NCBI GenBank assembly: GCA_030747675.1
Contig: JASLKH010000078.1
Location: 1-17,276 of the forward strand
From: Candidatus Thalassarchaeaceae archaeon
GTDB taxonomy: Archaea; Thermoplasmatota; Poseidoniia; Poseidoniales; Thalassarchaeaceae
DNA length: 17,276 nt
Direction of reading: 5' to 3'
Below the pieces are notes generated by a model. It saw only the letters and a program-made list of their open reading frames with translations, had not been told where the DNA came from and did not search any database. The position numbers and the translations under genes are program-made. Every line of letters starts with the position of its first letter. Position 1 is the first letter of the stretch. This document shows positions 1 to 16,515 of this stretch, in pieces.

Positions 1-2
1 AT

Positions 3-470
3 TTATCTCGTCCAGTTATCGAAGTGCGCACATTTCCAACCAACAAAATGACACACGAAATATTCTCCTTTGGGGAACAAATTGTAGTCGTTCCAGTAGA
101 CTCAGAAGCAGGACCAAGTCCCGCGAAACGCCTTGCAGCAGCCGAAGTAGCAAGAGTAGTTCAAAGATACACAGGGGCCAGAGTGCATCATGTGGATATG
201 GCCTCTGATACAGCTGCAACAATATATACAGATGAGAGTGCAATTGGTGCTATAGTAGGACAAGGCGGCTCAGGAGTCCGTGGCTTAGAAGAAGAAATTG
301 GTTTGAAATTGAAAATAAAAGGGGCGAAGGAATTACCTAAAGGAACCCGTAGAATTAGCAGTAACCCTTCTGATAATTGGGACATTCAATCTGAAAGATC
401 AGTTGGTAGCCGTTCATGGGAAAGCACATCTGGTGGTGGCCGCAGAAAGAAAGGAAAGAGGCGAAGATAA
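3..470 (+). CDS. C-terminal part (5'-truncated by window edge) of a PINA-type PIN-domain/VirB11-like ATPase with C-terminal KH domain
   Basis: Frame is open from position 3 (LSRPVIEVRTFPTNKMTHEIFSFGEQIVVVPV), matching the DLARPVIEVRDF..EIYxFGEExVVVPV segment of archaeal PINA. It is followed by a KH domain with a GxxG loop (IVGQGGSGVRGLEEEIGLKLKI). The ORF-track start at 24 is an internal GTG. Confidence 0.8.
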   Translation, partial: LSRPVIEVRTFPTNKMTHEIFSFGEQIVVVPVDSEAGPSPAKRLAAAEVARVVQRYTGARVHHVDMASDTAATIYTDESAIGAIVGQGGSGVRGLEEEIGLKLKIKGAKELPKGTRRISSNPSDNWDIQSERSVGSRSWESTSGGGRRKKGKRRR

Positions 471-521
471 TCGATATATTCACTCAAAGCCTTCTTGAAT
501 CATACCAAAGTCGCGGACATC

Positions 522-2114
522 ATGGGCGAAGAGGCTGCAGGGAAACCGCCCGTGGTTATTTTACGAGAAGAATCCACCGTCACTAGTGGAACAGCAGTCC
601 AAGAGAAATTAATTGCCGCCGCGCGAGTATTCGCAGATCTGTTACGCCCCACTTTCGGTCCAAGAGGACTTGACAAAATGTTATACAAAACAGATGGGAC
701 AACAGCAATCACAAATGATGGTGCGAAAATTATTGCTGAATTAATGGTAAAACACCCCGCAGCAAAAATGCTTGTCTCAATGGCAGAAACACAAGAAAAC
801 ACATGTGGCGACGGTGTCACTGGAACTTTACTAATGTGTTCTGAACTATTAATGGAAGCAGGACGCCTTATGGAGAAAGGCCTCCACCCCTTAGTGGTAC
901 ATTCGGGATATGAACGAGCGAGAGAAGTGTCTTTGGAAAAAATCCAAACCCTATGTATCGACGTTGATGTTAAAGACAAAGAAACGCTTCAATCAATTGC
1001 TGCAACATCACTTACTGGAAAAGGTGCAGAAGGTGCGATAAAAACACTTTCAAAATTAGTAATAAACGCCCTTATGAGCGTATCTCGCATTGAAGAAGAC
1101 GGAACACACCGTTGTGAAGCTGAAGATGTTACAATGCATAAAACTGGCAAAGGATCGATAACAGATAGTCAATTTGTGAAAGGTATAGTTATCCGCCGCC
1201 GGATATTATTAGATGCCCTACCAACCCACATTCAATCTCCAAATGTGGCAGTTTTGAATTGTGATTTAGCTCCAAGAAAACAGATACGCTCGTCAGAAAT
1301 TGAAATTGAAGAGGTAGAACAATTAGAAGCATTTTTGGAAATGGAAGAAACATTACGCGATAAATTATCAAAGTCACTTATTGCCACGGGAGCAAATGTG
1401 TTTTTATCAAGTGGAGAAATCGATAAAGGCATTCTTCACAGGTTGATGAGGTCTGGGTGCTTTGTTGTTGGCGAATTAGATGACCGAGAACTACGTAATG
1501 CAGCCGCAGCAACTGGGGCAAGGATAGTTGAATTTGCAGCAGATTTAGAGGAAACCGATGTAGGTCAAGCGGGTGAATTGAAAACCGAAAGGCGACCTAC
1601 AACTGACAAAGTCGAAGATATAATCCGATTAGTAGGTTGTATAAATCCCAAAGTAGTAACATGTGAAATAGGTGGTGCCAACGATTTGGCTACCGAAGAA
1701 ACAATTCGTGCAATTCATGACGCCCTCCGCTCAACAAGTCTAACAATCCAAGATGGAAGAATTTTGCATGGTGGAGGGGCAACACACATGGCTTGTGCTT
1801 TAGCAATTCGTGAGGCAGCAGAACGTGAACCTGGTCGTGAAAGACTAGCCATGGAAGCCTACGCCAGGGCTTTAGAAATCATCCCAATTAGCCTTGCAAA
1901 AAATGCCGGTGCAGACCCATTAGACCGGATTTTAGAACTTCGTGCCGCCCACCGATCGGGTTCAGAATCAGCAGGGATTGATTCATCAGGAAAAGTTGGA
2001 CAAACCGATGCTAGAGTTTCAGCAACAACTCTAGAATCTGCTATTGAGGCGGCTTCAGAGACATGTGGAAGCATGCTTCGAATAGATCAAGTTATCAGTG
2101 CACGTGGAGATTAA
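522..2114 (+). CDS. ths: Group II chaperonin (thermosome) subunit, divergent paralog
   Basis: PTFGPRGLDKML, ITNDGAKII, GDGVTG, helical-protrusion region, IHDAL, GGGATH, LRIDQVI. ATG at 522 (MGEEAAGKPPVVILRE) is preferred over the TTG at 495 because it matches typical thermosome N-termini. Confidence 0.92.
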   Translation: MGEEAAGKPPVVILREESTVTSGTAVQEKLIAAARVFADLLRPTFGPRGLDKMLYKTDGTTAITNDGAKIIAELMVKHPAAKMLVSMAETQENTCGDGVTGTLLMCSELLMEAGRLMEKGLHPLVVHSGYERAREVSLEKIQTLCIDVDVKDKETLQSIAATSLTGKGAEGAIKTLSKLVINALMSVSRIEEDGTHRCEAEDVTMHKTGKGSITDSQFVKGIVIRRRILLDALPTHIQSPNVAVLNCDLAPRKQIRSSEIEIEEVEQLEAFLEMEETLRDKLSKSLIATGANVFLSSGEIDKGILHRLMRSGCFVVGELDDRELRNAAAATGARIVEFAADLEETDVGQAGELKTERRPTTDKVEDIIRLVGCINPKVVTCEIGGANDLATEETIRAIHDALRSTSLTIQDGRILHGGGATHMACALAIREAAEREPGRERLAMEAYARALEIIPISLAKNAGADPLDRILELRAAHRSGSESAGIDSSGKVGQTDARVSATTLESAIEAASETCGSMLRIDQVISARGD

Positions 2115-2129
2115 ACACGGGGCTGACCC

Positions 2130-2153
2130 ACGGATGGGTTCAAAGACATCCGT
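2130..2153. promoter_or_regulatory. Inverted repeat upstream of purH (possible hairpin or operator)
   Basis: ACGGATG-GGTTCAAAGA-CATCCGT: perfect 7 bp arms with a 10 nt loop in the ths-purH spacer. Confidence 0.35.
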
Positions 2154-2180
2154 ACTTTCCATGAGTAACGGGTTCCTGCT

Positions 2181-3851
2181 ATGGTCGACCATAATCAGCC
2201 CACGCTGACATCATCAGTGCCCGGGAAAGAAGGCAATGATGCCCCACGCGCTCTAATTAGTGTATACGATAAAAAAGGGGTGACCGCCTTAGCTACAGCC
2301 CTCACTGCGATGGGTTGGCAAATCCTTTCCACAGGGGGCACGGCCCGCCTTCTCAGAGAAAATGGCCTTGAAGTAATAGATGTCACAGATGTCACAGGAC
2401 ACCCTGAAGTATTCGATGGTAGAGTGAAAACCCTGCACCCCGCAATACATGCTGCAATTCTTGCTAGAGGAGATAACCCCGCTGACATGCAGACACTTTC
2501 TGAGTTAGGATACCCTAGAATCGACTTGGTCGCTGTGAATTTATATCCTTTTGAAGAAGTTGCAGCACAAGTTCCACCTGTGAGCGAATCAGCATTAATT
2601 GAGATGATTGATATTGGGGGCCCCACCTTAGTGCGAGCCTCTGCAAAAGCCCATTCTGATGTGTTAGTTGTAACCGACCCAACTGATTACAGTGACTTAT
2701 TGGAAACATTGCAGGAGGCCAATGGTGACCCAACCGGGGTAGACATTTCTACCCGTCAACGACTTGCACTTACTGCATATCAAAGGACAGCAGCATATGA
2801 CGTTGCTCTGGCCAATATTCTAGCTAATAGATTGGAGTCACTAGCCGATGAAGCCGAAGCCACTCTACCTGAAAAACTCCTCATTAGTGGGGGAAATCGC
2901 GTACTTTTACGATACGGGGAAAACCCTCACCAACCTGCAGCCTTCTATCCAAATTCAGTAACAGAAGAGGAACCAACAGGTCTCGCCTCGGCAATCCAGC
3001 ATGGCGGAAAGGCACTATCATTCAATAATTATCTAGATCTAGATGCCGCCCTCCGCTTCTGCCGCTCATTTATTGGCCCAGAGTGGGAACAATGGCCCCA
3101 TTGTTGCATCATCATTAAACACACCAATGCATGTGGTGTAGCAATCAGTACCAAGAGTCAAGCAGAAGCATGGAAAGATGCACTTGCAAGCGACCCAGAA
3201 TCGGCATTTGGATGTGTAGTTGCATTCAACACCCCGTTGAATAAAGAAACAGCTGACACCATTGGCAACCACTTTGTTGAATGTATTATCGCCCCAGGGT
3301 ACGATGAAGGTGCTTTGGAAGAACTGTCAATCAAGAAAAACCGCCGAATGCTCACTATGGAAAACATGACACCACTCGATATGGAAGTACATTACCGCGA
3401 AATTGATGGCGGATGGTTGGCACAAACTGAAGGCGCACCAATCATTGACTGGAAGTCGGTGAAATGCGTTTCAAAGGCGCAAGCAAATGATATACTAATG
3501 GATTTGTCAAGATTCGGAGTTGCCATCTGCGCCCAAGTGAAGAGTAATTGTGTTGTTTTCGTTAAAGCCACAGAAACAGGATTTGCATCAGTAGGTATAG
3601 GGCCAGGCCAAACTAGCCGTGTTGAAGCAGTTCGAATTGCTGCACGCCGAGCCGGCCCTCGCGCTAGCGGAGCAGTTATGGTATCTGATGCATTTTTCCC
3701 ATTCAGAGATGGAATAGATGCCGCCCATGAGATGGGCATCACAACAGTAGTTCAACCGGGCGGCTCTATTAGGGACGCCGAAGTAATCGAAGCCGCTAAT
3801 GAACATGGAATGGCGATGATTTTCACTGGAACACGCTTGTTTAGGCACTAA
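2181..3851 (+). CDS. purH: Bifunctional IMP cyclohydrolase / AICAR transformylase PurH
   Basis: ALISVYDK, ILSTGGTA, GRVKTLHPAIH, VNLYPF, IDIGGPTLVRASAK, LRYGENPHQ, LSFNNYLD, KHTNACG, QVKSN, GQTSRV, SDAFFPFRDG, QPGGSIRD, terminal RLFRH. Confidence 0.97.
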   Translation: MVDHNQPTLTSSVPGKEGNDAPRALISVYDKKGVTALATALTAMGWQILSTGGTARLLRENGLEVIDVTDVTGHPEVFDGRVKTLHPAIHAAILARGDNPADMQTLSELGYPRIDLVAVNLYPFEEVAAQVPPVSESALIEMIDIGGPTLVRASAKAHSDVLVVTDPTDYSDLLETLQEANGDPTGVDISTRQRLALTAYQRTAAYDVALANILANRLESLADEAEATLPEKLLISGGNRVLLRYGENPHQPAAFYPNSVTEEEPTGLASAIQHGGKALSFNNYLDLDAALRFCRSFIGPEWEQWPHCCIIIKHTNACGVAISTKSQAEAWKDALASDPESAFGCVVAFNTPLNKETADTIGNHFVECIIAPGYDEGALEELSIKKNRRMLTMENMTPLDMEVHYREIDGGWLAQTEGAPIIDWKSVKCVSKAQANDILMDLSRFGVAICAQVKSNCVVFVKATETGFASVGIGPGQTSRVEAVRIAARRAGPRASGAVMVSDAFFPFRDGIDAAHEMGITTVVQPGGSIRDAEVIEAANEHGMAMIFTGTRLFRH

Positions 3852-5144
3852 TCAGGAACTTTTCTGAATTCGTTCTGCACCGACCCATTCATCCCAACTT
3901 GAATCGAATCCTACGTAGTGGATGAGATACTTATCGCCCATGACTTCACGAATCAATGCATCCCACCATTGCCCCTTCCACTCAACTTTGACTTGTTCTC
4001 CGGTAGAGTATGGGTTGTTGAATGGATGATCTGCAGGTGGTGTAATCCACCCAGTCGGGCCAACGACATACATTGTGTTTCGAGTTTCCACTCGTGCAGT
4101 TGCCCTTTCATCGTAGGCAATCCCCAAAATACTGGAGGTGCTTACCGCACCCTCTCCAAGTTTTGGATGCGCATATGCAAACCCCTTGAGACGCCCTTCG
4201 ACAATTTCAGCATCACGGATAATAACCTCGGGTTTCTGCTCGACAACTTCCCCCTCACTGCTGACCATGTACTTGGCCAATTCTCGGTAATCGATTTCAG
4301 AATCCATACTAATTCCAAGTTCTGAAAATTCAGTCAACACGTCACTGACAGAAATAGGTTCATCGCCGATTTCAGTGAGAATTTCGAAATATTTCTTAGC
4401 GGGAATGGTGCCCGTTCCGTTCTCATCGAACACTTGGAATGCTTCAATTAGTTCTTGTTCTGCACCCATGACACTTTCCACATATTCCTGAACTTCCACA
4501 GAATCTTCCTGCATGGCTTCGATTCGACCCCATTCAACATTATTCTCGACATCACCATCATCAAAGTGAATCATGAATGTGTGATCATCGTGTTCACTTG
4601 CAATGCGACCAGGGTAGTAGTGCCCGTAATTCTTCCAATTCACAAGAACACGATCTCCTGCACTAAATGGTGGAGCAGCGGGCCGAATAGTACCTGGAGC
4701 AGAACCAATGACGACCGCATGCTTTGTTTCCACTCGCGTGTTTTTTGGCACATCGATTTTGTATGTCCCATCATCATTAATGGCAACAACCGTACATCTA
4801 TCTAACCAACGTGCATTGGTGGGACTATGATATTCAACATGGTCGCCAACATTGAAAGAAGCTGGCAACTCAATCTCGGGTGTTGGAGGGGGAGCAGCAG
4901 GCGCAGCAGGTGCTTGATTGACCATCCCCATTTGTTGTAATGCTGTAATAACGGCAGTTGTGACCGCAGCGGGATCGTTGTTGATGACTGTGCTGTGGAC
5001 AACATCACCTCCAATTACCGAATCTTGCATACTGAGCGCTTGTTCACTGGGTGCCACTGATTCCTCAGATGTCGGTGGAGCAGGAATCCATTCGCTCCCT
5101 GTCCACATGAATTTACCATCTGGACTCAAAATAGGGTCTGACAT
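3852..5144 (-). CDS. Multidomain protein: N-terminal Trp motif, two Tudor/Agenet-like barrels, EF-hand pair, unnamed module, C-terminal Tudor-knot/chromo-barrel
   Basis: FSAGDRVLVNW..YYPGRI..F.IHFDDGD (Tudor/Agenet); EAFQVFDENGTGTI..IDYRELAKYM (calmodulin-like lobe); KYLIHYVGFDSSWDEWV..ERI (MRG15/MOF-type Tudor-knot). ATG at 5144 (MSDPILSPDG) is preferred over the GTG at 5180, which overlaps the upstream stop codon. Confidence 0.85.
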   Translation of the reverse strand: MSDPILSPDGKFMWTGSEWIPAPPTSEESVAPSEQALSMQDSVIGGDVVHSTVINNDPAAVTTAVITALQQMGMVNQAPAAPAAPPPTPEIELPASFNVGDHVEYHSPTNARWLDRCTVVAINDDGTYKIDVPKNTRVETKHAVVIGSAPGTIRPAAPPFSAGDRVLVNWKNYGHYYPGRIASEHDDHTFMIHFDDGDVENNVEWGRIEAMQEDSVEVQEYVESVMGAEQELIEAFQVFDENGTGTIPAKKYFEILTEIGDEPISVSDVLTEFSELGISMDSEIDYRELAKYMVSSEGEVVEQKPEVIIRDAEIVEGRLKGFAYAHPKLGEGAVSTSSILGIAYDERATARVETRNTMYVVGPTGWITPPADHPFNNPYSTGEQVKVEWKGQWWDALIREVMGDKYLIHYVGFDSSWDEWVGAERIQKSS

Positions 5145-5176
5145 GAAAGCAGGTCTGAATAGTGATATATGACATA

Positions 5177-5950
5177 TCACTCTAGAATCGCTCTTATTGC
5201 TGCAAGTGTTTCAGGAGTTTTGATACCCATCATTTCTTGCTCATTTGCTATTGCAATTCCGTCTACCATTTGATTATTCATAAGACATCCTTTAACCATC
5301 TCATTCGGGTAACCCAATTCTCCAGAAACTGTGCTATAGCGATTCAATTTCTCATCAAACATTTCAGTATGCAAACCATCCAGCACTCCGTCTAAAGCCC
5401 TTCTACTGGCCCAGTAAGCGCCAATATTCGTCTCACCACGTGCTGGCATTTCTGCACCATCAAGGTGGGTTTCAACTGAACCACAAACTTGCCCTGACTT
5501 ATCCCTTAGTAAAGGGGCGTATGGGTTATCCATTACTACAGTAGCCAACGTGAAATCCAAATTGTGCCTGATATGGTGCCCATAGGATCCTTCTACAGTT
5601 TTATTTTCGATCAAAGGTTGAGTACCAAATGAAACGTATACGTGCTCCACGGGCATCAACAAATGCTCAAGAGTAGTATAGACGGCGTTCCCAGTCCCTA
5701 ACGCCATCTTTTGTGTAATTATTTTACAATCAACACCCCTTAATGCATCATGATATTCAGATTCTCTACCAGGCGGAATTACAACAATCAATTGTGAGAA
5801 GTCCAATGAAGACTGCATTAACTTACCAATCACAAGTTTCGTTGCTGGCACCCCACCAATCTCTAACAGCGGCTTATGAGTAGTAACTCCACCCTCTAAC
5901 ATTCGACTTCCTTTTCCACCACAAAGAAGCACGGCAGCGAGGGCGACCAT
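5177..5950 (-). CDS. Stand-alone sugar-phosphate nucleotidyltransferase resembling the GlmU N-terminal domain, with no left-handed beta-helix domain
   Basis: AVLLCGGKGSRM..KPLLEIGG, Q..ALGTGNAV, LRDKSGQV.G.VE, ETNIGAY, EMMGI. ATG at 5950 is preceded by GGCGGGGT. The ORF-track extension to 6133 overlaps pfdA and looks non-coding. Confidence 0.8.
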   Translation of the reverse strand: MVALAAVLLCGGKGSRMLEGGVTTHKPLLEIGGVPATKLVIGKLMQSSLDFSQLIVVIPPGRESEYHDALRGVDCKIITQKMALGTGNAVYTTLEHLLMPVEHVYVSFGTQPLIENKTVEGSYGHHIRHNLDFTLATVVMDNPYAPLLRDKSGQVCGSVETHLDGAEMPARGETNIGAYWASRRALDGVLDGLHTEMFDEKLNRYSTVSGELGYPNEMVKGCLMNNQMVDGIAIANEQEMMGIKTPETLAAIRAILE

Positions 5951-6047
5951 ACCCCGCCGAAGAACACCAAGCACTTCAGAATGGCGCGAGGCCCACATCG
6001 ACGGCTTGATGACACCCAAGCGATTCGAGTAACCCGGAGGGCTATGA

Positions 6048-6536
6048 GTGGAAGCGGCTGAATTGCAAAGAATTGCACAACTCGTTGAATTAAATCGCCA
6101 GAAAATGGCACGCTTAGAGGAACAGATTAGCAAGTTACGTGAAATCCACGTTGAACAAACCGGCGTTCTTTCTGCCCTTCAGGCAATGGACAACTCAAAA
6201 CAGACCATGATTCCATTAGGCGCAGGTGTGCAATTACCAACAACATCAACCAATGATGCTGTAGTGATAGATATTGGATCCGGGATTCAAGCAGAACGTC
6301 CGAGAGAAGAGGCAATTATAATCCTTCAAACAAGAATGACAGATGTAATGGAGGTATTAACCGCCCTTGAATCAGAATTCAATTCCACAGAAAAAATGGT
6401 TATCGAACTCGCAACTACCTTCAATGAAGCTGCCAACGCTTTGAAGGCTTCCGAAGAAGAAACTACATCTGAACCTGAACCCACGCAAAAATCCAGACGG
6501 CGGCGTAGAGGGACTGAATTAACCCTTGACGATTAG
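6048..6536 (+). CDS. pfdA: Prefoldin subunit alpha
   Basis: Coiled-coil / beta-hairpin / coiled-coil layout with TMIPLGAGVQL..VVIDIGSGIQAERPREEAIIIL..R. GGAGG lies 7 nt before the GTG start. It is followed by ftsY, as is common in archaea. Confidence 0.92.
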   Translation: MEAAELQRIAQLVELNRQKMARLEEQISKLREIHVEQTGVLSALQAMDNSKQTMIPLGAGVQLPTTSTNDAVVIDIGSGIQAERPREEAIIILQTRMTDVMEVLTALESEFNSTEKMVIELATTFNEAANALKASEEETTSEPEPTQKSRRRRRGTELTLDD

Positions 6537-6544
6537 GTGATTAG

Positions 6545-7918
6545 ATGGGATTTTTCGATCGATTTCGGAAGCGAGTCAAAGAGGTGGCTGAAGATACAGA
6601 TCTAGAATCATTGACGGTAGAAGAAGACAGCGCGGAGGGAATTGAGGCACTTGCCACACCCACACCCTCTGAACAAGTAGAAGAGGATTGGGACAATATC
6701 GAGGAGATAGAAGCCCCAGTAGAAATTGCAGACCAAGAAGAGGACTGGGATGACTGGGACGAGGAACCCGAAACCCCAGCCGCACCCTCCATTTCTAAAA
6801 AAGAACGAAAGCGAATAGAAAGAGAAAAACGCCAACGTGAAAAAGAAAAGAAAAAGTTAGCAAAGAAAGGCATCGACATAGATCAAGTAGTCAGGCCAGA
6901 CGGCTCCCGTGTTGATTTACATGTAATGCGCTCAACAACAGGCCGTAAATTAGTCGAAGTAGAACATGCACCTCGAATGTCTGTTGGTAAAAAAAAGGTG
7001 GAGACTGAAAAAGGAACATCCTTCGAAATAGACCTTGGAGGAGGGATGGTGGAGAAAGGCGGTCGAATTGTTAAAGATGGTCCCGTATTAGAAAACCTTC
7101 TCGAAGAATTAGAATTGGTTATGCTTGAAGCTGACATGGGGCGCAAGGCCATGCAAGAGGTGATCGACGCCCTAAGGATGGAGTTAATTGGAAGCCGTTT
7201 GCGCAAGGGTGCAGACCTAACCAAAGTAATTGAGGCAAGCCTTAAGCGAGCCCTTCACAGTCTACTTATCGCAGGATACTGGGATTTCAACAAGACTGTT
7301 GATAGTATGATAGAAGATGGAGACACCCCTGTGATTATCATGATGGTCGGTGTTAATGGAACTGGTAAAACAACCACCACTGCAAAGATTGCACACCGCC
7401 TCAATAATGAGGGGCGATCAGTTGTTTTAGCCGCTGCCGACACGTTTCGTGCAGGCGCTATTGATCAATTAGAAACGCATGCTGAGAGAATCGGAGTTAG
7501 GTGTGTATCCAGCGAGAGAGGCGGGGACTCTGCAGCGATCGCAAGAGATGCAGTTGAAAGTGCAAAGGCTCGAGGTGCCGATGTTGTGATAGTTGATACA
7601 GCAGGCAGGATGACCAACAAAATTAATCTCATGAACGAATTACAAAAAGTCCACAGGGTAGCACAACCACATTTAGTACTCTTTGTTGGTGATGCTTTAG
7701 CAGGTAATGACGCAGTCGAACAAGCAGTGGAATTCCAAAGAATGCTCAAATTCGATGGAGCAGTATTGTGTAAACTAGACACAGATGCCAAAGGGGGTGC
7801 CGCCCTCTCAATTGCCCATGCAACTGGCCGACCAATTGTCTTGGCTGGGGTGGGACAAGATTATGCTGACCTCAAACAATTTGACTCAGATTGGCTTCTA
7901 GAAATGATGTTTGAATAG
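6545..7918 (+). CDS. ftsY: Signal recognition particle receptor FtsY with long N-terminal region
   Basis: SRP GTPase motifs GVNGTGKTTT, AADTFRAGAIDQL, DTAGR, CKLDTDAKGGAALS, GVGQDY; NG domain from LEELELVMLEADM. Confidence 0.96.
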   Translation: MGFFDRFRKRVKEVAEDTDLESLTVEEDSAEGIEALATPTPSEQVEEDWDNIEEIEAPVEIADQEEDWDDWDEEPETPAAPSISKKERKRIEREKRQREKEKKKLAKKGIDIDQVVRPDGSRVDLHVMRSTTGRKLVEVEHAPRMSVGKKKVETEKGTSFEIDLGGGMVEKGGRIVKDGPVLENLLEELELVMLEADMGRKAMQEVIDALRMELIGSRLRKGADLTKVIEASLKRALHSLLIAGYWDFNKTVDSMIEDGDTPVIIMMVGVNGTGKTTTTAKIAHRLNNEGRSVVLAAADTFRAGAIDQLETHAERIGVRCVSSERGGDSAAIARDAVESAKARGADVVIVDTAGRMTNKINLMNELQKVHRVAQPHLVLFVGDALAGNDAVEQAVEFQRMLKFDGAVLCKLDTDAKGGAALSIAHATGRPIVLAGVGQDYADLKQFDSDWLLEMMFE

Positions 7919-7929
7919 GGTGTGATACG

Positions 7930-8301
7930 ATGGACGAGATATTAAATTCAGACGAAAGTCAACGATTCTTCTCTTTAGTGTACATGTTGCAACGCAGTAC
8001 TTTGATGAACATGGGAATGATTGCAGATGCGGAAGGAATGATCCACTTCAACTTGGGAGAGGCTAAGGAAGGAATTGACATTCTTGACACACTCAATAAA
8101 AGAACTGAAGGCAATCTGGAAGAAGTTGAAGCAACACTTCTGAAAGGAATCGTTTCTGAATTGAAGATGGCATTTGTCCGCGCACCATCTCAGCAGCAAG
8201 CAATTGAAGCAGAAAAGAATCGACAAGAGGAACTCCGTGAGACATTTGTATCCCCTGAAACCGCACCTTCTGACACACTAATTGATGATGAAGAGGAGTG
8301 A
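7930..8301 (+). CDS. DUF1844 family protein
   Basis: FFSLVYML..MG....G..HFNL.EAKEGIDIL.TL..RTEGNL...E..LL..IVSELKMAFV matches the DUF1844 pattern; GGGTGTGA upstream of the ATG. Confidence 0.8.
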   Translation: MDEILNSDESQRFFSLVYMLQRSTLMNMGMIADAEGMIHFNLGEAKEGIDILDTLNKRTEGNLEEVEATLLKGIVSELKMAFVRAPSQQQAIEAEKNRQEELRETFVSPETAPSDTLIDDEEE

Positions 8302-8354
8302 ACCGCCCATCCGTTCGTTTGATGAATCAACCCGTTTTCCGAGAAGTGGTAGCC

Positions 8355-9029
8355 ATGGTACGAGTCACCGCGTCAGACGACCCAGACGCTAACATTGTCC
8401 TCATTGTAGACAACAACCCAATGAACACCCATCGGCTTACTCAAGTATTCACTCAAAAGGGTTGGAGAATAGAAGTATGCGAGGACGGAGACCTGGCTGT
8501 AGACACTTATGTTGAACTCAAACCAAACCTCACTCTTCTTGCTCTTGATCTGCCGACAATGGATGGCCACATTGCAGCGTTAGAAATGCGCGAATCCGAT
8601 CCTAACGCACGAATTGCCTTCATGTCTTCCCGCAGTCAACGAAACCTCGCAGCTGATGCTACACATTCAGCGGGTGCAGTGGTTTGGTTAGAGAAACCAG
8701 TGACCAAACAAATCATTGATGTAAATTGGGAGATGATCATGGGAGATATTCCTGAAGCACCTGGTTTAGAAGACATGGACCAACTTTATCCAGATGTTGA
8801 TACCCATCGTGCAAAAAGAGACGGTGAAGAAGTTGTGGATGTGACATCTGCTTTACCACCACTTCCGGCTTTACCGACAATATCTCTCCCGGCACCCGAG
8901 GTTGCATCCACACCTGAACCAAAGAAAAAAGGAAACAAACTCAAAATCACACTCTTATTCTTGCTTTTAGCAGGGGCCGGAGTAGGTATGTGGGTATATT
9001 CAACCCCGTGGCAACAGGGTTTGATTTGA
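8355..9029 (+). CDS. CheY-like receiver domain lacking the phosphoacceptor Asp, with Pro-rich linker and C-terminal transmembrane anchor
   Basis: VLIVDNN, EDG, PNLTLLALDLPTMDG, AGAVVWLEKP; hydrophobic ITLLFLLLAGAGVGMWVY near the C-terminus. ATG 8355 is preferred; GTG 8298 (overlapping the DUF1844 stop) is the alternative. Confidence 0.82.
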   Translation: MVRVTASDDPDANIVLIVDNNPMNTHRLTQVFTQKGWRIEVCEDGDLAVDTYVELKPNLTLLALDLPTMDGHIAALEMRESDPNARIAFMSSRSQRNLAADATHSAGAVVWLEKPVTKQIIDVNWEMIMGDIPEAPGLEDMDQLYPDVDTHRAKRDGEEVVDVTSALPPLPALPTISLPAPEVASTPEPKKKGNKLKITLLFLLLAGAGVGMWVYSTPWQQGLI

Positions 9030-9033
9030 ACAA

Positions 9034-9282
9034 TCAGAAAGGCGGCTGCTGTTGAATTGGTACCGCCTGTGCCGGTACATATGGAACAATAACACTCCCT
9101 TCAGGAGCATCAAGAATAGTTTCTACTTTAGTGCTAGAACTGTGCAATAAAGTTTCATCACATTGATCAATTCGTTGATCTAGAGTAACATAGGAATTCC
9201 ATTGCCACCAACTAACCACCACTAACAAACTCAACATCACAACGAATAGAATTAAGCCAAAGAAATTAGTTGCAACAGACAT
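9034..9282 (-). CDS. Small (82 aa) single-pass membrane protein of unknown function
   Basis: ATG at 9282 overlaps the pyrF stop (TGATG) with GGAGG 6 nt upstream; N-terminal hydrophobic helix FFGLILFVVMLSLLVVVSWW; fills the gap between pyrF and the convergent receiver gene. Confidence 0.68.
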   Translation of the reverse strand: MSVATNFFGLILFVVMLSLLVVVSWWQWNSYVTLDQRIDQCDETLLHSSSTKVETILDAPEGSVIVPYVPAQAVPIQQQPPF

Positions 9283-10088
9283 CAAAATCCTCCACGTTCC
9301 AACAAAGCCTCCCAAGAAACAAGTGCATATTCTTCTGCTGCACCACGAGGGTTGTTGACACCGTGTATTCCGCTGCCAACAATAATCCCATCACTTCCAG
9401 AGAGCACCGCCTTGCGCGGATCCCCATACCTTTGACCCATTTCCCCATCACCAATTGCAATATTAACACCTGGAGTCCAAATCATTTTTTTGTCACCCAC
9501 ACGACTCCGCAAGGACGCAACATCATCTGAATTACTTCCATTGCCAATGAAACCAAATACTCCAGAATGTGAGCAACCTGCAGCTACCATAGCATCCGTG
9601 TACCCTGGAATTTCCAAAAGATTACCGCGGCTTGACATTTGAGCGAGTAATAACACCCCTCCCTCCCTGTCAACATCAGACCACCCTGCACATAATCCAT
9701 CAACGATGTCAGGCCCTGAAATCCCATGCGCAGTTACTATGTCACTCCAAGAGCGAATATCGTAAGCCCCAGCCATTTGCCCACGGCTTATTTTCCCAAT
9801 ATCTGCAAATTTACGGTCTTCAAAAATCAATAAGTCGTGCTTTTTAGCATGATGACACAACTCCCCCCACTCCTCAGCATCCCAATCGTCAACGAGATCG
9901 ACATGAGTTTTTAGTGCTGCAATATGGGGCCCAACAAGATTAATCATTGATTTCAAATCACCCATAGTTCTCAAATCAGCAGCTAAAACCACTAAACTTT
10001 GCTTACGTGAAGCCACTTCCATATAGCGACGAGCTAGTGAATTGTCACACATTTTCCAACGTGGACCCCACACTTCACTTGCTTCCAT
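9282..10088 (-). CDS. pyrF: Orotidine 5'-phosphate decarboxylase, URA3/UMPS-like subfamily
   Basis: LAADL, LKTHVD, catalytic FEDRKFADIG, WSDIVTAHG, LLAQMSSRGNL, WTPGV, GQRY, DGIIVG. Confidence 0.93.
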   Translation of the reverse strand: MEASEVWGPRWKMCDNSLARRYMEVASRKQSLVVLAADLRTMGDLKSMINLVGPHIAALKTHVDLVDDWDAEEWGELCHHAKKHDLLIFEDRKFADIGKISRGQMAGAYDIRSWSDIVTAHGISGPDIVDGLCAGWSDVDREGGVLLLAQMSSRGNLLEIPGYTDAMVAAGCSHSGVFGFIGNGSNSDDVASLRSRVGDKKMIWTPGVNIAIGDGEMGQRYGDPRKAVLSGSDGIIVGSGIHGVNNPRGAAEEYALVSWEALLERGGF

Positions 10089-10133
10089 CAGGCACGGGTA
10101 GGGTCACCACCCCTCAATCCTTCGGGTCGGAAA

Positions 10134-11150
10134 TTATCTCCAACCTGCATCAACTACAGAGTTAACACCGTCTACGATGGTATCTTCAAGAGACATCCAA
10201 TTCATACCTAATTGATCCACCGCTGGACTTGAGTCATATTCACAAGTAGTACCAATATTTGTTTTGACCCATTTTGGAGAGATTAGAGGATGAAATATGG
10301 AAATTCCATAAGCAACCAATTTTGGCGCCACAAGCTTCGGCCATTTTCGTTGAGGAACTTTCTGCCGCAACAAAGCAGCAATTTCTTTCATCCACATTGA
10401 ATCATTAAACACAATGTATCTTCCTAAATTTTCTCCTTTGTCAAGAGCATTTACATGCGCAATAGCTACATCTCTAACATCCACAATGTTCACGTGCATT
10501 TTCAGAAGAACAGGAGGTTTACGTTTCAATAGGTGATCAAGGACAGACATAGATCCTTTCAGGTGTCTTTCAGACATGATTGGGCCCAGTACTATGCAGG
10601 GATTAATAGAAACGTAACGCGGTCGCAAACCTTCTTCCTGAGAATTAACCCATTCTCTTGCCATTTTTTCCGCTCCTGCTTTAGCAAGCCCGTATGCATT
10701 TGTTTTGACAGTTGCATCATCACACCAATCTTCGTTGGTAAATGTTAGTCCATTTCGATACCCCGTCCTTCGCACTGCTGCCACAGATGATGTGTGCACA
10801 ATTCTCTTGACCGCACCTTCACGTTCTAACGCACTCAACAAATTTCTAGTCCCATCAATCGATGGATCTATGACATCACGCTGCGGGTCCATAGCCCCTG
10901 CATATAGGGCTGCAGCACAGTGTATAACATCCTCACAACCAACAACGGCAGATGACACAGAAGCCCTATCCAACAAATCCATTTTTACAATTTCTAAATT
11001 TTCTGAGCTAGGGAGATCAAGTAAAAATTTAGCATTCACAGGATCTCTAACAGTTGCCCGCACCTTCTTTCCATTTGCAAGGAGTTCACGTACCACATGC
11101 GAACCAATGAATCCAGCGGCACCGGTGACCAAGACAATTTCTTCGCCCAT
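10134..11150 (-). CDS. NAD(P)-dependent epimerase/dehydratase, extended SDR of the dihydroflavonol-reductase/Gre2-like group
   Basis: LVTGAAGFIGSHVV (TGxxGxxG), VIHCAA, HTSSVAAV, catalytic YGLAK (YxxxK), INPCIVLGP, VDVRDVAIAHV. Confidence 0.9.
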   Translation of the reverse strand: MGEEIVLVTGAAGFIGSHVVRELLANGKKVRATVRDPVNAKFLLDLPSSENLEIVKMDLLDRASVSSAVVGCEDVIHCAAALYAGAMDPQRDVIDPSIDGTRNLLSALEREGAVKRIVHTSSVAAVRRTGYRNGLTFTNEDWCDDATVKTNAYGLAKAGAEKMAREWVNSQEEGLRPRYVSINPCIVLGPIMSERHLKGSMSVLDHLLKRKPPVLLKMHVNIVDVRDVAIAHVNALDKGENLGRYIVFNDSMWMKEIAALLRQKVPQRKWPKLVAPKLVAYGISIFHPLISPKWVKTNIGTTCEYDSSPAVDQLGMNWMSLEDTIVDGVNSVVDAGWR

Positions 11151-11211
11151 AATCTCACATCCATTCTTTGTCCATGAACTCTCCTAAGGGCCCGACCTGT
11201 GGCGGAAAGTG

Positions 11212-11230
11212 TCAAAGGGAGACCCTTTGA
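11212..11230. promoter_or_regulatory. Perfect 8 bp inverted repeat in the divergent SDR / membrane-protein spacer (candidate operator)
   Basis: TCAAAGGG-AGA-CCCTTTGA, ending 9 nt before the ATG at 11240. Confidence 0.45.
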
Positions 11231-11239
11231 GCCGTAATC

Positions 11240-11845
11240 ATGGCGAAAGGAACGCAAACGGATGATAACAACTCGTCCGGCCTCAAGAAATGGTTTATGC
11301 GACAGTATTGGCGCCTTCAACAATCCCAATCAATAATTTCAATGGGCTTTTGGGTAATATTGCTCACGTTAAACATCTGGCCATATATCCGATGGCGATT
11401 TGAAGATAACGAATCATTTCTCGGACTTTCCATGACGTATTGGGGCTTTGCGTCTATTGGCATAATTGTGATTTTCTTCGTCATGTTTGTAGGATGGGTC
11501 TATGATCACTTCTTTTCATTGTGGAAGGAACATCAGAACGTAATCATTGAGCGCAATCCATTTGCAACATATTTACTCACTCCCCGGGACGCCATAATAA
11601 TCGGACATCTTTCTACGGCTTTGAGATCACAACACCCTGATGATGAAAAAATCCAGGCGCAGTGTGATTGGATGGAGAAATGGATTGCTACAACCCCCGA
11701 CCTTGAAGTCTTCCGAAGAATGGTTACCGAATTAGATGCTAAATTGGGCGAACCTGTTCCAGAATTCACCTTCTTGCCCGATGGAGCTGTTGAAAAAGCT
11801 CGAAATACAGCCCGCAAAGATCTGATGAAGCCCGATGATAATTGA
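11240..11845 (+). CDS. Hypothetical membrane protein with two predicted TM helices
   Basis: 201 aa ORF with hydrophobic stretches IISMGFWVILLTLNIWPYI and YWGFASIGIIVIFFVMFVGWVY, then ERNPF; 9 nt gap to the next gene. Confidence 0.8.
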   Translation: MAKGTQTDDNNSSGLKKWFMRQYWRLQQSQSIISMGFWVILLTLNIWPYIRWRFEDNESFLGLSMTYWGFASIGIIVIFFVMFVGWVYDHFFSLWKEHQNVIIERNPFATYLLTPRDAIIIGHLSTALRSQHPDDEKIQAQCDWMEKWIATTPDLEVFRRMVTELDAKLGEPVPEFTFLPDGAVEKARNTARKDLMKPDDN

Positions 11846-11854
11846 GGTGTTGAA

Positions 11855-12397
11855 ATGCGAATTGTAGGGATGGTTCCAGCCCGCCTCGGCTCCAAAAGAC
11901 TGGTTCGTAAAAACCTGCAGGATTTGAATGGGCACCCACTCATTTCATACGCCATTAGAGCACTACAAAGCATCCCAGTAATCGATGAAGTCTACGTGTC
12001 CACAGAAGCAGAAGAAATTGCTGAAACTGCACGAGATTATGGTGCCACCCCAATCATGAGGCCCCCCGCATTAGCCGAAGATCACATTCGAAGTCAAGAT
12101 GTGTTTCAGCACTTTGCCTCAGAAGTCGAATTCGACATCCTCGTAATCGCTCAGGCAAACAGCCCAAATGTCCAAGCAAGTAATATCGAGAAAGGAATTA
12201 ATTTGATGAGAAAGAACGATTTATGGGAGGTCCGTAGTGTGAACAACGAAGGTTTAGAAAATGGAGCATTTTGGATTTTGAAAAGAAATACAATTGCATG
12301 GGAGGGCCTTTCTTGTTACTTCGGAATCGTAATCGATGACGCTGTTGACATTCATACCACAGATGATCTCCATGCAGCAAAGGAGATGATGGAATAA
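11855..12397 (+). CDS. neuA: Acylneuraminate (nonulosonate) cytidylyltransferase, NeuA/SpsF family, compact 180 aa form
   Basis: VPARLGSKRL.RKNL..LNGHPLI, VSTE, RP..LAED, QANSP, ENGAFWI, DIHT.DDL; GAGGTG upstream. The symbol is family-level only. Confidence 0.88.
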   Translation: MRIVGMVPARLGSKRLVRKNLQDLNGHPLISYAIRALQSIPVIDEVYVSTEAEEIAETARDYGATPIMRPPALAEDHIRSQDVFQHFASEVEFDILVIAQANSPNVQASNIEKGINLMRKNDLWEVRSVNNEGLENGAFWILKRNTIAWEGLSCYFGIVIDDAVDIHTTDDLHAAKEMME

Positions 12398-13116
12398 TGT
12401 TGAAAGTCAGTGTAATTGTTACGAATTACAATTACTCCTCGTTCATTGGTCGATGCTTACGCTCATTACTTTCTCAAAGTATGCCGACCGAAGAATATGA
12501 AGTCATAGTAGTGGACGATGGGTCCACAGACAATAGTCGCGAAATCATCGAATCATTTGGAGATAAAATCAATGCAATATATGTTGAAAACGGGGGCGTT
12601 GCCAAAGCATCCAATATTGGAATTCAAGCCGCAAAAGGACCCTTTGTAATGCGGGTCGATGCTGATGATTACGTGAACCCACATATGTTGCTAATAATGA
12701 GTGAGGCCCTATTTTGGAACCCTGACTTTGGGTTTGTATATTGTGATCATTTTCGGGTCGATGAGCGTGAAGAACGAGTTGAAAGAATCCGTCTAAATAC
12801 AGTTGATAAATTATACAACCACGGTGCAGGCATTCTATTTCGAAAGGCGAATTTAGAGAGTCTAGGTTTGTATGACGTAGATATTGACAATTGTGAAGAT
12901 TTTGATTTACTCATTCGTTACCTGAAGAATTGGGATGGTTACCATGTCAAAATGCCATTATATCGGTATACACAGCATGGAAATAGCTTGACAGACAATA
13001 TTGAACAGCGGACAGAACGCGAAAAAACAGTACGCGAGAAACACAATTTGTATCCAGATTATACTCATGAGGCATCTAGAATATTAGATGGTAAAAAAAT
13101 AGATGGTCAGGAGTAG
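12397..13116 (+). CDS. Glycosyltransferase family 2 (GT-A, SpsA-like)
   Basis: VSVIVTNYNY, VVDDGSTD, NIGIQAAKG, RVDADD (DxD), EDFDLLIR; start overlaps the neuA stop (TAATG). Confidence 0.9.
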   Translation: MLKVSVIVTNYNYSSFIGRCLRSLLSQSMPTEEYEVIVVDDGSTDNSREIIESFGDKINAIYVENGGVAKASNIGIQAAKGPFVMRVDADDYVNPHMLLIMSEALFWNPDFGFVYCDHFRVDEREERVERIRLNTVDKLYNHGAGILFRKANLESLGLYDVDIDNCEDFDLLIRYLKNWDGYHVKMPLYRYTQHGNSLTDNIEQRTEREKTVREKHNLYPDYTHEASRILDGKKIDGQE

Positions 13117-13122
13117 AACAAG

Positions 13123-14181
13123 ATGAGAGAAATAGAAATAGGCACACGTACAGTCGGATTAGGACACCCATGCTTTGTTATTGCTGAGGCAGGAGTAAAT
13201 CACAATGGAGAACTTTCTAGGGCCATTGAATTAATCGAAAAAGCCGCCGCGGCGGGGGTTGATGCCGTCAAGTTTCAAACATACAAAGCATCGAAATTAG
13301 TGGTGAGAGACGCCCCACGATTTTGGGACTGGGAGGGCGAATCCGATTCTGAAGGGACACAATACGATTCATATTCCCAACTCGACGGCTTACCCCTTGA
13401 TGCGTATCCTGTGATGTTTAATCGGTGCGAAGAATTAGGTGTGGAATTCATGTCAACCCCCTTTGATTTTGAGAGTGCAGATTTCCTTGATGAACTGGGG
13501 ATGCGGGCCTACAAAATCGCTTCTTGTGATTTGACAAACCATCCCTTCCTTGCGCATGTGGCAAGTAAAGGGAAACCAATGTTTCTTTCAACAGGTACAT
13601 CTACAATTGAAGAAATTCAGGCCGCAGTCAATGTTGTTCAAAAAGCAGGGAATGAGAAATTAATGCTCATGCATTGCACATTAACATACCCTACACCATA
13701 CAAAGACAGCAATCTTCGAATGATGCAGACTATGATGGAAACGTGGCCAGACATCCCTATCGGATTGTCTGATCACACACTGGGAATCTCAATTCCTGTT
13801 GCGGCCGCAGCCCTTGGTGCAACAAGCCTAGAGAAGCACTACACCGTCGATAAAACACTACCAATGTCTGCTGACCATTGGTTAAGCGTTGATCCCCCTG
13901 AGGTTACAATGATGATTGAGATGATGCGCCAAGTAGAAGTGGGACTTGGGAGTGCTGAGAAGAAACCAGTCGAAAGTGAATTAATCGCGATGAGCAATGC
14001 CCGACGAAGCGTAGTTAGTGCTTGCAATATTCCATTAGGGACTAAAATTACTGAAGATATGCTGACACAAAAGCGACCAGGCCACGGAATATCTCCCATT
14101 GAACAACATAAAGTGGTGGGCATGAAAGCAAAGGTGGACATTACCGAAGACCGCCTAATTCTTTGGGACCAACTTGAGTGA
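13123..14181 (+). CDS. neuB: N-acetylneuraminate/nonulosonate synthase, NeuB/SpsE family, with C-terminal SAF/AFP domain
   Basis: IAEAGVNHNG, DAVKFQTY, STPFD, YKIAS, LSTG, MHCT..YPT, GLSDHT, LEKHYT, DH..S, RRS, KRPGHGISP. The product (Neu/Leg/Pse/other) cannot be determined from sequence. Confidence 0.93.
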   Translation: MREIEIGTRTVGLGHPCFVIAEAGVNHNGELSRAIELIEKAAAAGVDAVKFQTYKASKLVVRDAPRFWDWEGESDSEGTQYDSYSQLDGLPLDAYPVMFNRCEELGVEFMSTPFDFESADFLDELGMRAYKIASCDLTNHPFLAHVASKGKPMFLSTGTSTIEEIQAAVNVVQKAGNEKLMLMHCTLTYPTPYKDSNLRMMQTMMETWPDIPIGLSDHTLGISIPVAAAALGATSLEKHYTVDKTLPMSADHWLSVDPPEVTMMIEMMRQVEVGLGSAEKKPVESELIAMSNARRSVVSACNIPLGTKITEDMLTQKRPGHGISPIEQHKVVGMKAKVDITEDRLILWDQLE

Positions 14182-14195
14182 ATGGAGTCGAACCC

Positions 14196-15365
14196 ATGCG
14201 CATCCTAATTCATGGAAGCGAACGACCATTACACATTCAACAATTCATCCCACTGATGAAATTACTCGATTCAAATCCAAATTCTGAATATATTTTCTTC
14301 CAGTCGAAATCTGATTTACCAATTCAACCAACGAACAAATTATTTCATAGAATTCGGGATTTCTGTTGGGATCGTTTCAACTATGCTCGAAACTCTTTCA
14401 ATCCAAAAGATTGGCGTTGGATTTGGAAACAAAAAGGACAAGGTCCAAACAAATTAGAATCTCCTGCAGAGCAATGGGAATTCCCATGCCCTCCAACAAA
14501 ATCGAATATCCCATGGAAGCCAGACCTCGTTATTGGGACAACACCGCATGAAGGACATATGCGCTACCAACTAATACCGTGGGCAAGCAAAAATAACATC
14601 CCAATTCTTTCAATTGACCATGGAGCACCCATGGTTCCTTATTCATTTGGAAACTATCGTGGTTCGATGATGGGTTGCACTGCAAACGCAGTTTGGGGCG
14701 AAGTTTCGAAAACAATCAATACAGGTTATGGTGCACCATCCACCGGTCAAATAATCACAGGTTCCCCAACTCTTGATGAGTTATCCTCCATGGACGTATC
14801 AAAGAAAACATCCCGCAAACAAATTCTCTTAATGACCACACATCGTGAACCACTTAAATCGGCTATGGATTCAATGATGGAGCGAGTCATTGAGCAATAC
14901 ATTTCCAATACAGAATTCGAAATTGTAGTCAAACCCCACCCTGTTGAATTAATCAGAGGCACATTACAAAAATTACCTCAAGAAATCCGAATAATCACCG
15001 AACAAGGTGATTTGCATGCTTGTATGCAAGCAGCACACTGTATTGTTTCTCCTGCAACATCTGTCATTATTCCAGCACTTGCAATGGGGATACCATTTGT
15101 CAACATCCTGCAACCAGGCAGTGGTTTAACCGATGAAAAGGAACTCCAAATCTTGAATCAACACATTGGTTTAGCCACTTTCACCCCTGAACAACTTGAG
15201 GATGTAGTTGAAGGCCGATTAACTCCCGATCCCAATGAGTGCAAAATTGCATTCGAGCGATTGGGCTACAAAGCAGATGGGCAAAATGCAGCTAGAGTAT
15301 TACATCTAGCAAAACACATCGTCTTGGGCAATGAACCCGATACATGGACAGACCCATTTAATTGA
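14196..15365 (+). CDS. Hypothetical GT-B-like protein, candidate nonulosonate transferase (TagF/SpsB or UDP-GlcNAc 2-epimerase-like fold)
   Basis: IDHG, ITGSPTLD, VVKPHP, L..C...AHCIVSPATSVIIPALAMGIP (the GT-B 'S....EA...G.P' region); last gene of the neu operon. ATG 14196 has GGAG 8 nt upstream; GTG 14178 is the alternative. Confidence 0.6.
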   Translation: MRILIHGSERPLHIQQFIPLMKLLDSNPNSEYIFFQSKSDLPIQPTNKLFHRIRDFCWDRFNYARNSFNPKDWRWIWKQKGQGPNKLESPAEQWEFPCPPTKSNIPWKPDLVIGTTPHEGHMRYQLIPWASKNNIPILSIDHGAPMVPYSFGNYRGSMMGCTANAVWGEVSKTINTGYGAPSTGQIITGSPTLDELSSMDVSKKTSRKQILLMTTHREPLKSAMDSMMERVIEQYISNTEFEIVVKPHPVELIRGTLQKLPQEIRIITEQGDLHACMQAAHCIVSPATSVIIPALAMGIPFVNILQPGSGLTDEKELQILNQHIGLATFTPEQLEDVVEGRLTPDPNECKIAFERLGYKADGQNAARVLHLAKHIVLGNEPDTWTDPFN

Positions 15366-16434
15366 GTCTAGCCATCAACGTTCGGCCAGCAAAGGATTGT
15401 TCAATATCTGTTTCTGAAACGGTGACTAGACCACTCCCATCAGTAAGAGTAATTGCGTGGAAGTTACCTATTTGCAGCAAACGCTCCCCTTTTGCCGGTA
15501 GCACTCTCATCTCACTTTCACGTAAGAGAACCCCCTCTTCCACACGTGCGATCCAGAGAGGCGCACGCCACCGGAAAACACGTTCATTTATGGCACTCCT
15601 TCTTGTGTAAATAAGATGCAAACCTCCTTTGGTAACCACCCATCGCTGTTGGGTTGTATCTGTAACCAAAGGCATACCATCGTCAAATTCCCAATTTGTA
15701 ATTTCTGACCAGTTTAATCCATTATCAGATATTGACCAATAACCCCGCCCATCTTCAGCGCGTATTGTCATCCAATATTTCCCCCCCGATTCAATTAGCG
15801 AAGGCTCAAGCAACCCCCTCCCTGCCTCCAAATTAAGTGAGTTACTATTATCCAGAACCACAATCTCCTCTGCTGTAACAGAAAGTTGCAGAACTGCAAC
15901 CCCCCTTCCCCCATCTGAATTAGTATGTGAAACAGGCAAAAGAATCGAACCATCCTCAAGCGTTACCCTTTGCGCACAACCAGCATATAACGAACGAGCG
16001 CACCTTTTATCATCCCACTTAAGGAACCGACGTTCAGACCAAAATCCATCCCGATCAAGAAATGTGTAAATGGTTTTTCTATTCTCATTAGCACTAGCTA
16101 AAACCCCATTGCAATAATACACATTTTGGCCGATTAGAAGCAAGCGACCATCTGCTAATTCGGAAGGAACAACATCACAAACAGCTTCTTCCCATTCTCC
16201 TTCAACTCCAGCATTAAACACTGATCTTTGCAAACTTGTAACTGGAACAGGCTCACTCCAATTTCGCCCCCTATCTTCACTCCATGCAATATGTACACCC
16301 TCATAGCCATCTTCAGCATTGATTCGTTGACAAGTCATAACCAACCGACCGTCGGCCAATTGACATGTCCTTGGAGAAAACCATGCCCCAACATCAGAAA
16401 CCGCCGGCCATATCACCGTTTGTTCGATTTCCAT
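15358..16434 (-). CDS. BNR/Asp-box beta-propeller, sialidase-like (exo-alpha-sialidase family); no signal peptide seen
   Basis: Asp-boxes SEDRGRNW and SDNGLNW; RGLLEPSL, WEFDDG, TQQRW, LIYTRR, RWRAPLWIA, GNF. ATG 16434 has GGAGGGGGT upstream; ATG 16455 is the alternative. Confidence 0.75.
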   Translation of the reverse strand: MEIEQTVIWPAVSDVGAWFSPRTCQLADGRLVMTCQRINAEDGYEGVHIAWSEDRGRNWSEPVPVTSLQRSVFNAGVEGEWEEAVCDVVPSELADGRLLLIGQNVYYCNGVLASANENRKTIYTFLDRDGFWSERRFLKWDDKRCARSLYAGCAQRVTLEDGSILLPVSHTNSDGGRGVAVLQLSVTAEEIVVLDNSNSLNLEAGRGLLEPSLIESGGKYWMTIRAEDGRGYWSISDNGLNWSEITNWEFDDGMPLVTDTTQQRWVVTKGGLHLIYTRRSAINERVFRWRAPLWIARVEEGVLLRESEMRVLPAKGERLLQIGNFHAITLTDGSGLVTVSETDIEQSFAGRTLMARLN

Positions 16435-16478
16435 GTACCCTGATACCCCCTCCATCTTTTTTGTCCTCCCGTCTGCAC

Positions 16479-16500: not shown

Positions 16501-16515
16501 ATCCCCCACCCCCAC

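Follow-up and report, generated by a model that had tools for sequence, protein, structure and literature searches.

Domains that read methyl marks are described as essentially eukaryotic innovations (bioRxiv 10.1101/2021.11.30.470311), and no dedicated reader domains have been reported from Asgard archaea (bioRxiv 10.64898/2026.07.02.735847). For the chromo-like domains of prokaryotes, binding of methyl-lysine-like peptides has been proposed on the same aromatic-cage argument that we use here (Kaur et al. 2018, PMC5906684); that study mentions rare euryarchaeal cases and combinations with EF-hands, and the accessible part of its supplement text names no archaeon. Here we analyse a 17,276-nucleotide stretch of DNA from a Candidatus Thalassarchaeaceae archaeon (assembly GCA_030747675.1, contig JASLKH010000078.1, positions 1 to 17,276 of the forward strand), called the window in its full length, and describe a gene in it whose product, P0001, is confirmed to unite three Tudor/chromo-type barrels, a calmodulin-like lobe and an unnamed beta module in a single archaeal protein (Table 1). 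The domain families are already known, and the architecture is new to the literature searched, in which we found no paper on Tudor domains in Poseidoniales (Marine Group II, MGII) or on this combination.

P0001 resembles several described systems and departs from each of them. With the chromo-like proteins of Kaur et al. it shares the motif VEW.G.W..A.V......Y.IHY.G.D.SWDEWV of its last barrel (barrel 3) together with the aromatic cage, but those proteins are secreted and carry 2-6 tandem copies of one domain, whereas P0001 has no signal peptide and combines a single barrel 3 with two Tudor-type barrels, an EF-hand lobe and a private module. The chromo-barrels of Eaf3, MRG15 and MRG2, which read H3K36me or H3K4me, have HY.G...SWDEWV in common with barrel 3; unlike them, P0001 contains no MRG domain and belongs to a lineage without a histone substrate. 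Repeats of the barrel 2 type are found in giant stramenopile proteins (for example TMW64474.1 of Pythium oligandrum, DAZ98959.1 of Lagenidium giganteum and KAG5192664.1 of Tribonema minus), some of which also carry EF-hands, though not adjacent to the repeat in the arrangement of P0001. Finally, the helix-loop-helix pair and its calmodulin spacing are those of lobes of the calmodulin C-lobe or myosin-light-chain type, except that P0001 possesses one lobe, embedded in the protein, with Lys at position 12 of loop 1 and Gly at position 1 of loop 2. The reading that we tentatively favour, as plausible though somewhat short of probable, is that P0001 acts as a cytoplasmic, acidic and multivalent adaptor of the Poseidoniales that may recognise Lys/Arg motifs, methylated or cationic, in partner proteins other than histones.

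Results

The coding part (3855-5144, reverse strand) specifies 430 residues, and we take the ATG at 5144 as its start in preference to a GTG upstream at 5180 because homologues begin at the same MxDP..SPDGK as P0001. More than 396 homologues of nearly the same length share 67-89% identity with it, the mean column identity among 27 diverse members is 72%, and comparison with eight orthologues gave nonsynonymous divergence (dN) of 0.12-0.24 with saturated synonymous divergence (dS) and dN/dS below 0.07; the gene is real and under strong purifying selection. All relatives with a source name come from Candidatus Poseidoniales or Thalassarchaeaceae, and the flanks of the gene in the window hold thermosome, purH, prefoldin subunit and ftsY genes; an archaeal host (MGII, Poseidoniales) is confirmed. 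Relatives already bear the automatic NCBI name 'Tudor-knot domain-containing protein'.

AlphaFold2 (AF2) modelled the whole of P0001 with a predicted local distance difference test score (pLDDT) of 68.9; residues 102-155, 165-210 and 384-428 each form a barrel of five strands, the EF pair is helical, and residues 306-361 contain six strands. Among the Foldseek matches of this model were the Agenet arrays of AGDP3/ADCP1, the triple Tudor of SETDB1 and the tandem Tudor of Sgf29. A preliminary description of this DNA, drawn from the letters and translations alone, had laid out the protein as a series of Tudor-family barrels with an EF-hand pair: each segment that it named was recovered in the same order and place, and the Tudor-family folds were retrieved by Pfam cut-offs (Tudor_3 and Tudor-knot), by PDB sequence matches and by Foldseek.

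The parallel that the same description drew between the last domain and the MRG15/Eaf3-type chromo-barrel is borne out. Residues 382-427 of barrel 3 score 28.9 bits against Pfam PF11717 (Tudor-knot; cut-off 20.8), the PDB sequences that match are the chromo-barrels of Eaf3 (E 2e-6), MRG15 and MRG2, and Foldseek superposes the barrel on MRG2 with H3K4me3 (4pl6_A) at a template modelling score (TM-score) of 0.86 and a root-mean-square deviation of 1.3 A over 56 columns with 30% identity. Barrel 2 was assigned in a similar manner: residues 163-201 reach 29.3 bits against PF18115 (Tudor_3; cut-off 25.8), the PDB sequences matched are the Tudor domains of KDM4B/A and PHF20L1, and the AF2 strands (165-169, 176-184, 190-194, 199-203 and 208-210) form a five-stranded SH3-like barrel. 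The aromatic cages that had been predicted proved to be kept throughout the family, with positions invariant, or within one or two sequences of it, in members carrying these barrels. W170 is present in all of 122 relatives, Y176 in 121 and F194 in 120, D195, D196 and D198 are kept in 122/122, and Y177 is invariant or nearly so; in the 114-115 relatives having barrel 3, W389, W393 and Y410 are each found in 114, W417 in 113, and F413 in essentially all.

Barrel 1 is more divergent and has no Pfam match of its own. It aligns with barrel 2 in a profile-profile comparison (hhalign probability 87%, E 4e-6) and is without the W...YYPG...FDDG cage motif of the latter. The all-beta module that precedes barrel 3 was modelled alone by AF2 with pLDDT 90.2 and six strands; we found no Pfam match for it, no Foldseek match in the PDB at E <= 0.001 and no usable match in a feature search of a protein atlas. 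Two independent aligners both rank the RFTS barrels of DNMT1, MET1 and DIM2 first among solved folds, with scores at background level (Z 5.0-5.1 in an exhaustive VIA search; Foldseek E 0.3, probability 0.85, TM-score 0.5). Against the ESM Atlas the module retrieved mainly its own family, followed by clusters of 196-residue archaeal and 288-residue Bacillota proteins (TM-score 0.77-0.79), and its sequence is confined to this family and a stand-alone form. The latter is the 127-residue Poseidoniales protein L014 (G023:C3, 993-1373, reverse strand), which consists of a hydrophobic N-terminus and the module, with 49% identity to residues 301-375. Two further observations concern the boundary between module and barrel 3: the branch of P0122 and P0169 carries there an insert of about 110 residues, rich in Trp and Gly and without Pfam match, and some orthologues (G038:C12, G062:C2 and G094:C41) are interrupted in frame by TGA or TAA close to residue 380, which could reflect split genes, pseudogenes or assembly errors.

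SH3-fold barrels are also used to bind RNA or DNA, as in ProQ, MOF and the KOW domains of Spt5, and P0001 might accordingly be a nucleic-acid binder. Foldseek indeed also yielded Spt5 KOW repeats, the Pfam name of PF11717 refers to RNA binding ('RNA binding activity-knot'), and the weak best folds of the module are barrels of DNA methyltransferases. On the other hand, P0001 contains 70 Asp and Glu versus 30 Lys and Arg, a net charge of about -40, and every barrel is neutral or acidic; the conserved residues are peptide-cage aromatics, not basic patches, and the RFTS match lies at background (Z 5.1). As the protein is acidic and has no basic barrel, cationic peptide ligands are favoured over nucleic acid, which we regard as a rather improbable ligand.

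Regarding the EF-hand lobe, residues 229-294 match calmodulin C-lobes among the PDB sequences with E 1.6e-11 (residues 80-147 of Paramecium calmodulin), while EF-hand_7 at 229-293 scores 25.2 bits, below its cut-off of 30, and 36.9 bits in the relative P0122. Loop 1 reads DENGTGTIPAKK and has Lys at position 12, a residue shared by 94 of the 122 relatives, with Glu in 13; loop 2 reads GISMDSEIDYRE and has Gly at position 1, likewise in 121/122. By the rules of EF-hands, Asp at position 1 and a bidentate Glu at position 12 are the key Ca2+ ligands, and because the two changes strip them, the lobe is unlikely to be a calcium switch in the P0001 copy, contrary to the coupling to ion binding that had been suggested for it. 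A protein in which calcium on this lobe regulates methyl-mark binding or partner capture during signalling would suit the clearly calmodulin-like pair, the 13/122 relatives, such as P0105 and P0119, in which loop 1 is fully canonical and position 12 is Glu, and the richness of Poseidoniales-specific gene modules in calcium-binding domains (PMC9258230). Given the Lys at position 12 of loop 1 in P0001 and 94/122 relatives and the loss of the position-1 Asp from loop 2 in nearly the whole family, and since the conserved neighbours include neither a kinase or channel gene nor any other gene for signalling, we hold this calcium-switched reader to be quite unlikely. A complex prediction in which the N-terminal leader was docked on the lobe, either intramolecularly or in trans, scored 0.06 and spoke neither for nor against such docking. 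The surrounding genome (G000; 1.68 Mb in 100 contigs, 78% complete) has two more EF-hand open reading frames (ORFs), of 406 and 582 residues (C8:23175-23345 and C90:18261-18401).

The preliminary description had also asked whether histones and lysine or arginine methyltransferases occur beside such a protein. Histone-fold genes were not found in the surrounding genome and were above cut-off in 1/101 Poseidoniales genomes, and SET genes were likewise above cut-off in only 1/101, which makes a role in chromatin unlikely. Since histone-fold genes are essentially not found in Poseidoniales, reading of histone tails is not the job of P0001. Methyltransf_16 was considered as a writer and rejected: its matches are weak as well as generic, and their presence by genus does not follow that of the family.

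P0001 is probably cytoplasmic, as had been proposed, judging from a Kyte-Doolittle hydropathy profile that revealed neither a transmembrane segment nor a signal-peptide-like N-terminus, the top 19-residue window reaching 0.91. This bears on the idea of a peptide binder of the envelope or the extracellular space, akin to the secreted bacterial chromo-like repeat proteins. Repeats in bacterial proteins that are secreted, fused to caspases or linked to sigma/anti-sigma factors share 45-55% identity with barrel 3, and Kaur et al. 2018 (PMC5906684) put those bacterial proteins outside the cell; P0001, however, lacks a signal peptide or transmembrane segment and has barrel 3 in single copy, and in membrane proteins that share its leader the Trp motif sits N-terminal of the transmembrane helix. 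An extracellular role is therefore the least credible of the alternatives, and we consider it highly improbable.

The leader itself consists of two parts, a Trp hairpin without matching Pfam family (S7, P8, D9, G10, K11, W14, G16, W19 and P21 invariant in alignment A3) and a second motif (D41, S42, V43, D47, T52, N56, D57, T62 and G73 invariant) in which AF2 places, with low confidence, a helix at residues 58-71. The two-part leader (a SPDGK.xW.G.EWIP hairpin, then DSVI.GD..NND and a helix) heads many unrelated Poseidoniales proteins, including a tetratricopeptide-repeat protein, a transglutaminase-like protein with transmembrane helix and Ca-repeats, and a 692-residue protein (L016, L017 and L018 are among the bearers). 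The surrounding genome encodes only two bearers, the second being a membrane protein (L002, contig C82, 173-238). The second motif recurs in the paralogues P0130 and P0141, and in P0130 a zinc ribbon takes the place of the hairpin.

That the leader precedes transmembrane helices in L002 and L017 invites a different proposal, namely a membrane-proximal scaffold whose cages bind choline-type lipid head groups or the tails of membrane proteins and whose leader targets the membrane. We searched the window and the flanks of 16 homologue loci and found no Band_7 homologue, the two Band_7 genes of the surrounding genome lying on another contig (C14); furthermore, the longer variants of the family add barrels rather than SPFH domains, and P0001 itself lacks a segment that would bind membranes. 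Such a scaffold appears distinctly improbable to us.

Near-full-length copies of the gene are present in about 28 of 151 Poseidoniales genomes, with about 7 more that are partial at contig ends, and the family occurs in all three Poseidoniales families, patchily inside genera. A leader-less query against 301 Thermoplasmatota genomes gave matches only in two large Poseidoniales families and none in more than 46 others, so that the architecture, for which a search of metagenome-assembled Thermoplasmatota genomes had been suggested, is confined to Poseidoniales among these 301 genomes. The novelty claimed at the outset stands in part: only Poseidoniales, and no bacteria, were found to have the complete architecture, but the family of barrel 3 has already been described in prokaryotes (PMC5906684).

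Within the family the number of barrels varies. An additional barrel is present in P0082, P0054 and P0063 (the last two being the only variants with two copies of barrel 3), P0124 is without barrel 1, the paralogue P0141 carries four copies of barrel 1, and the paralogue P0130 has the order zinc ribbon, barrel 1, two copies of barrel 2 and EF pair. Because variants gain or lose barrels in this manner, we take multivalency to be a theme of the family.

The barrels point to different relatives. In a search covering 1.84 billion representative proteins, barrel 2 matched repeats in 117 of the best 150 matches; the proteins concerned are 1,000-7,600 residues long, with 10-29 repeats apiece, and the eight among them with a named organism are all stramenopile (Pythium twice, Lagenidium, Ascophyllum, Laminaria, Phaeothamnion, and Tribonema twice). 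Outside the archaea, barrel 2 has its closest relatives in these giant proteins of oomycetes and of brown and yellow-green algae (P0123, P0125-P0133, P0139 and others), some of which have PUB or EF-hand domains. One of them, TMW64474.1 of Pythium oligandrum, comprises 12 nearly identical units of 95 residues, and barrel 2 with its preceding linker is 45% identical to a P. oligandrum repeat over 67 residues. In a domain tree of 55 columns, unrooted and mostly unresolved, the MGII copies cluster (approximate likelihood-ratio test 85), and since the tree has no root and little resolution, it designates neither a donor nor a direction of transfer for barrel 2. Barrel 3, by contrast, is nearer in sequence to tandem chromo-like repeats of bacteria (41-55% identity; P0178, P0198, P0202 and P0204-type) than to eukaryotic ones, the bacterial relatives being signal-peptide, caspase or sigma-70 proteins of Polyangiaceae and Deltaproteobacteria. 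A word-index search with the EF lobe alone returned only fragments of the family itself. Composition was tried as an indicator of recent transfer and gave no such sign, the GC content of the gene region (0.47) falling inside the range of the window (0.41-0.485).

The resemblance of barrel 2 to the repeats of stramenopiles is a hint of genes passing between MGII archaea and co-living algae. P0001 may even be an adaptor assembled from parts of mixed origin, with a Tudor domain, perhaps together with the EF lobe, exchanged with stramenopile algae or oomycetes, a chromo-barrel taken from secreted proteins of bacteria and a private module; we regard this assembly as unlikely. Were it true, a prokaryote free of histones and SET proteins would run reader-based methylation signalling that evolved independently of eukaryotic chromatin.

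Discussion

On the basis of the intact cages, the acidic character of the protein and the near-absence of histones from its lineage, we return to P0001 as a multivalent adaptor for non-histone partners. In such an adaptor, the caged barrels 2 and 3 would most likely each take hold of one Lys or Arg side chain, methylated or at any rate cationic, in a short peptide, and barrel 1 and the beta module might supply extra binding surfaces. The degenerate EF lobe would probably have a constitutive part, either structural or in clamping a helix, much as a myosin light chain does, and the N-terminal leader would probably be a tag that directs unrelated Poseidoniales proteins to a common site or partner.

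Several points weigh against this adaptor. First, aromatic cages can accommodate residues without modification, quaternary amines of other kinds, or RNA, and barrel 2 has Asp at what we take to be the position of the fifth cage aromatic of 53BP1. Second, the spatial clustering of the cage residues is read from the 4pl6 superposition only. Third, no convincing writer emerged from the candidates: SET was not found, and Methyltransf_16 does not track the family. Fourth, the family is accessory and not core, since it is patchy even inside genera. Fifth, none of the neighbouring genes is conserved in a way that would indicate a pathway. The last result also deprives the idea of an undescribed signalling system, put forward in the preliminary description, of a pointer from the gene neighbourhood, which is not conserved. 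In three long contigs with homologues, synteny is lineage-local only. The flanking PurH and NTP-transferase genes were tried as candidates for a conserved neighbourhood and are absent beside homologues in 11 other genomes.

P0001 nevertheless shows that an abundant order of marine archaea possesses a conserved protein, probably intracellular, in which two reader cages are intact. If these cages bind methylated residues, reader-type recognition of non-histone targets would exist in a prokaryote, and the protein would offer a tractable recombinant system for the pre-chromatin role of reader domains. The Poseidoniales hosts are uncultured.

Additional features of the window

Table 1. Position of the gene for P0001, of the segments of its product and of members of a sugar-modification cluster in the window.
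Feature	Residues	Position	Strand	Description
Whole gene		3852-5144	-	430 codons plus stop at 3852-3854; ORF and translation
Trp hairpin	7-24	5073-5126	-	SPDGKFMWTGSEWIPAPP; no matching Pfam family
Second leader motif	39-75	4920-5030	-	DSVIGGDVVH..INND, then amphipathic helix
Pro/Ala-rich linker	76-94	4863-4919	-	From sequence; AF2 pLDDT below 50
Barrel 1	97-155	4680-4856	-	Divergent Tudor/SH3-like; five AF2 strands; without canonical cage motif
Barrel 2	160-211	4512-4667	-	Tudor; intact cage W170, Y176, Y177, F194, D196
Linker helix and calmodulin-like EF pair	216-297	4254-4499	-	Loops degenerate
Family-specific all-beta module	304-375	4020-4235	-	AF2
Barrel 3	379-428	3861-4010	-	Chromo-barrel/Tudor-knot; intact cage W389, W393, Y410, F413, W417
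CMP-sugar cytidylyltransferase		within 11855-16455		CTP_transf_3
Glycosyltransferase		within 11855-16455		GT2
NeuB-family synthase		within 11855-16455		With SAF domain
Epimerase-like or GT-like ORF		within 11855-16455		
BNR/sialidase-like protein		within 11855-16455	opposite to the cluster	

An ORF for a MobA-like NTP-transferase lies on the same strand as the Tudor gene and ends 32 nucleotides upstream of it. The TTG listed as the start of this ORF (5177-6133, reverse strand) probably lies too far upstream; the motif for nucleotide binding begins at about residue 62, and in its long form the ORF overlaps the prefoldin gene (6048-6536, forward strand). At 7930-9029, a gene for a DUF1844 protein is followed by one for a receiver-domain protein, with overlapping stop and start, and the receiver-domain protein contains a linker rich in Pro and, at its C-terminus, a hydrophobic helix. 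The sugar-modification cluster, whose members are listed in Table 1, resembles a nonulosonic-acid pathway.

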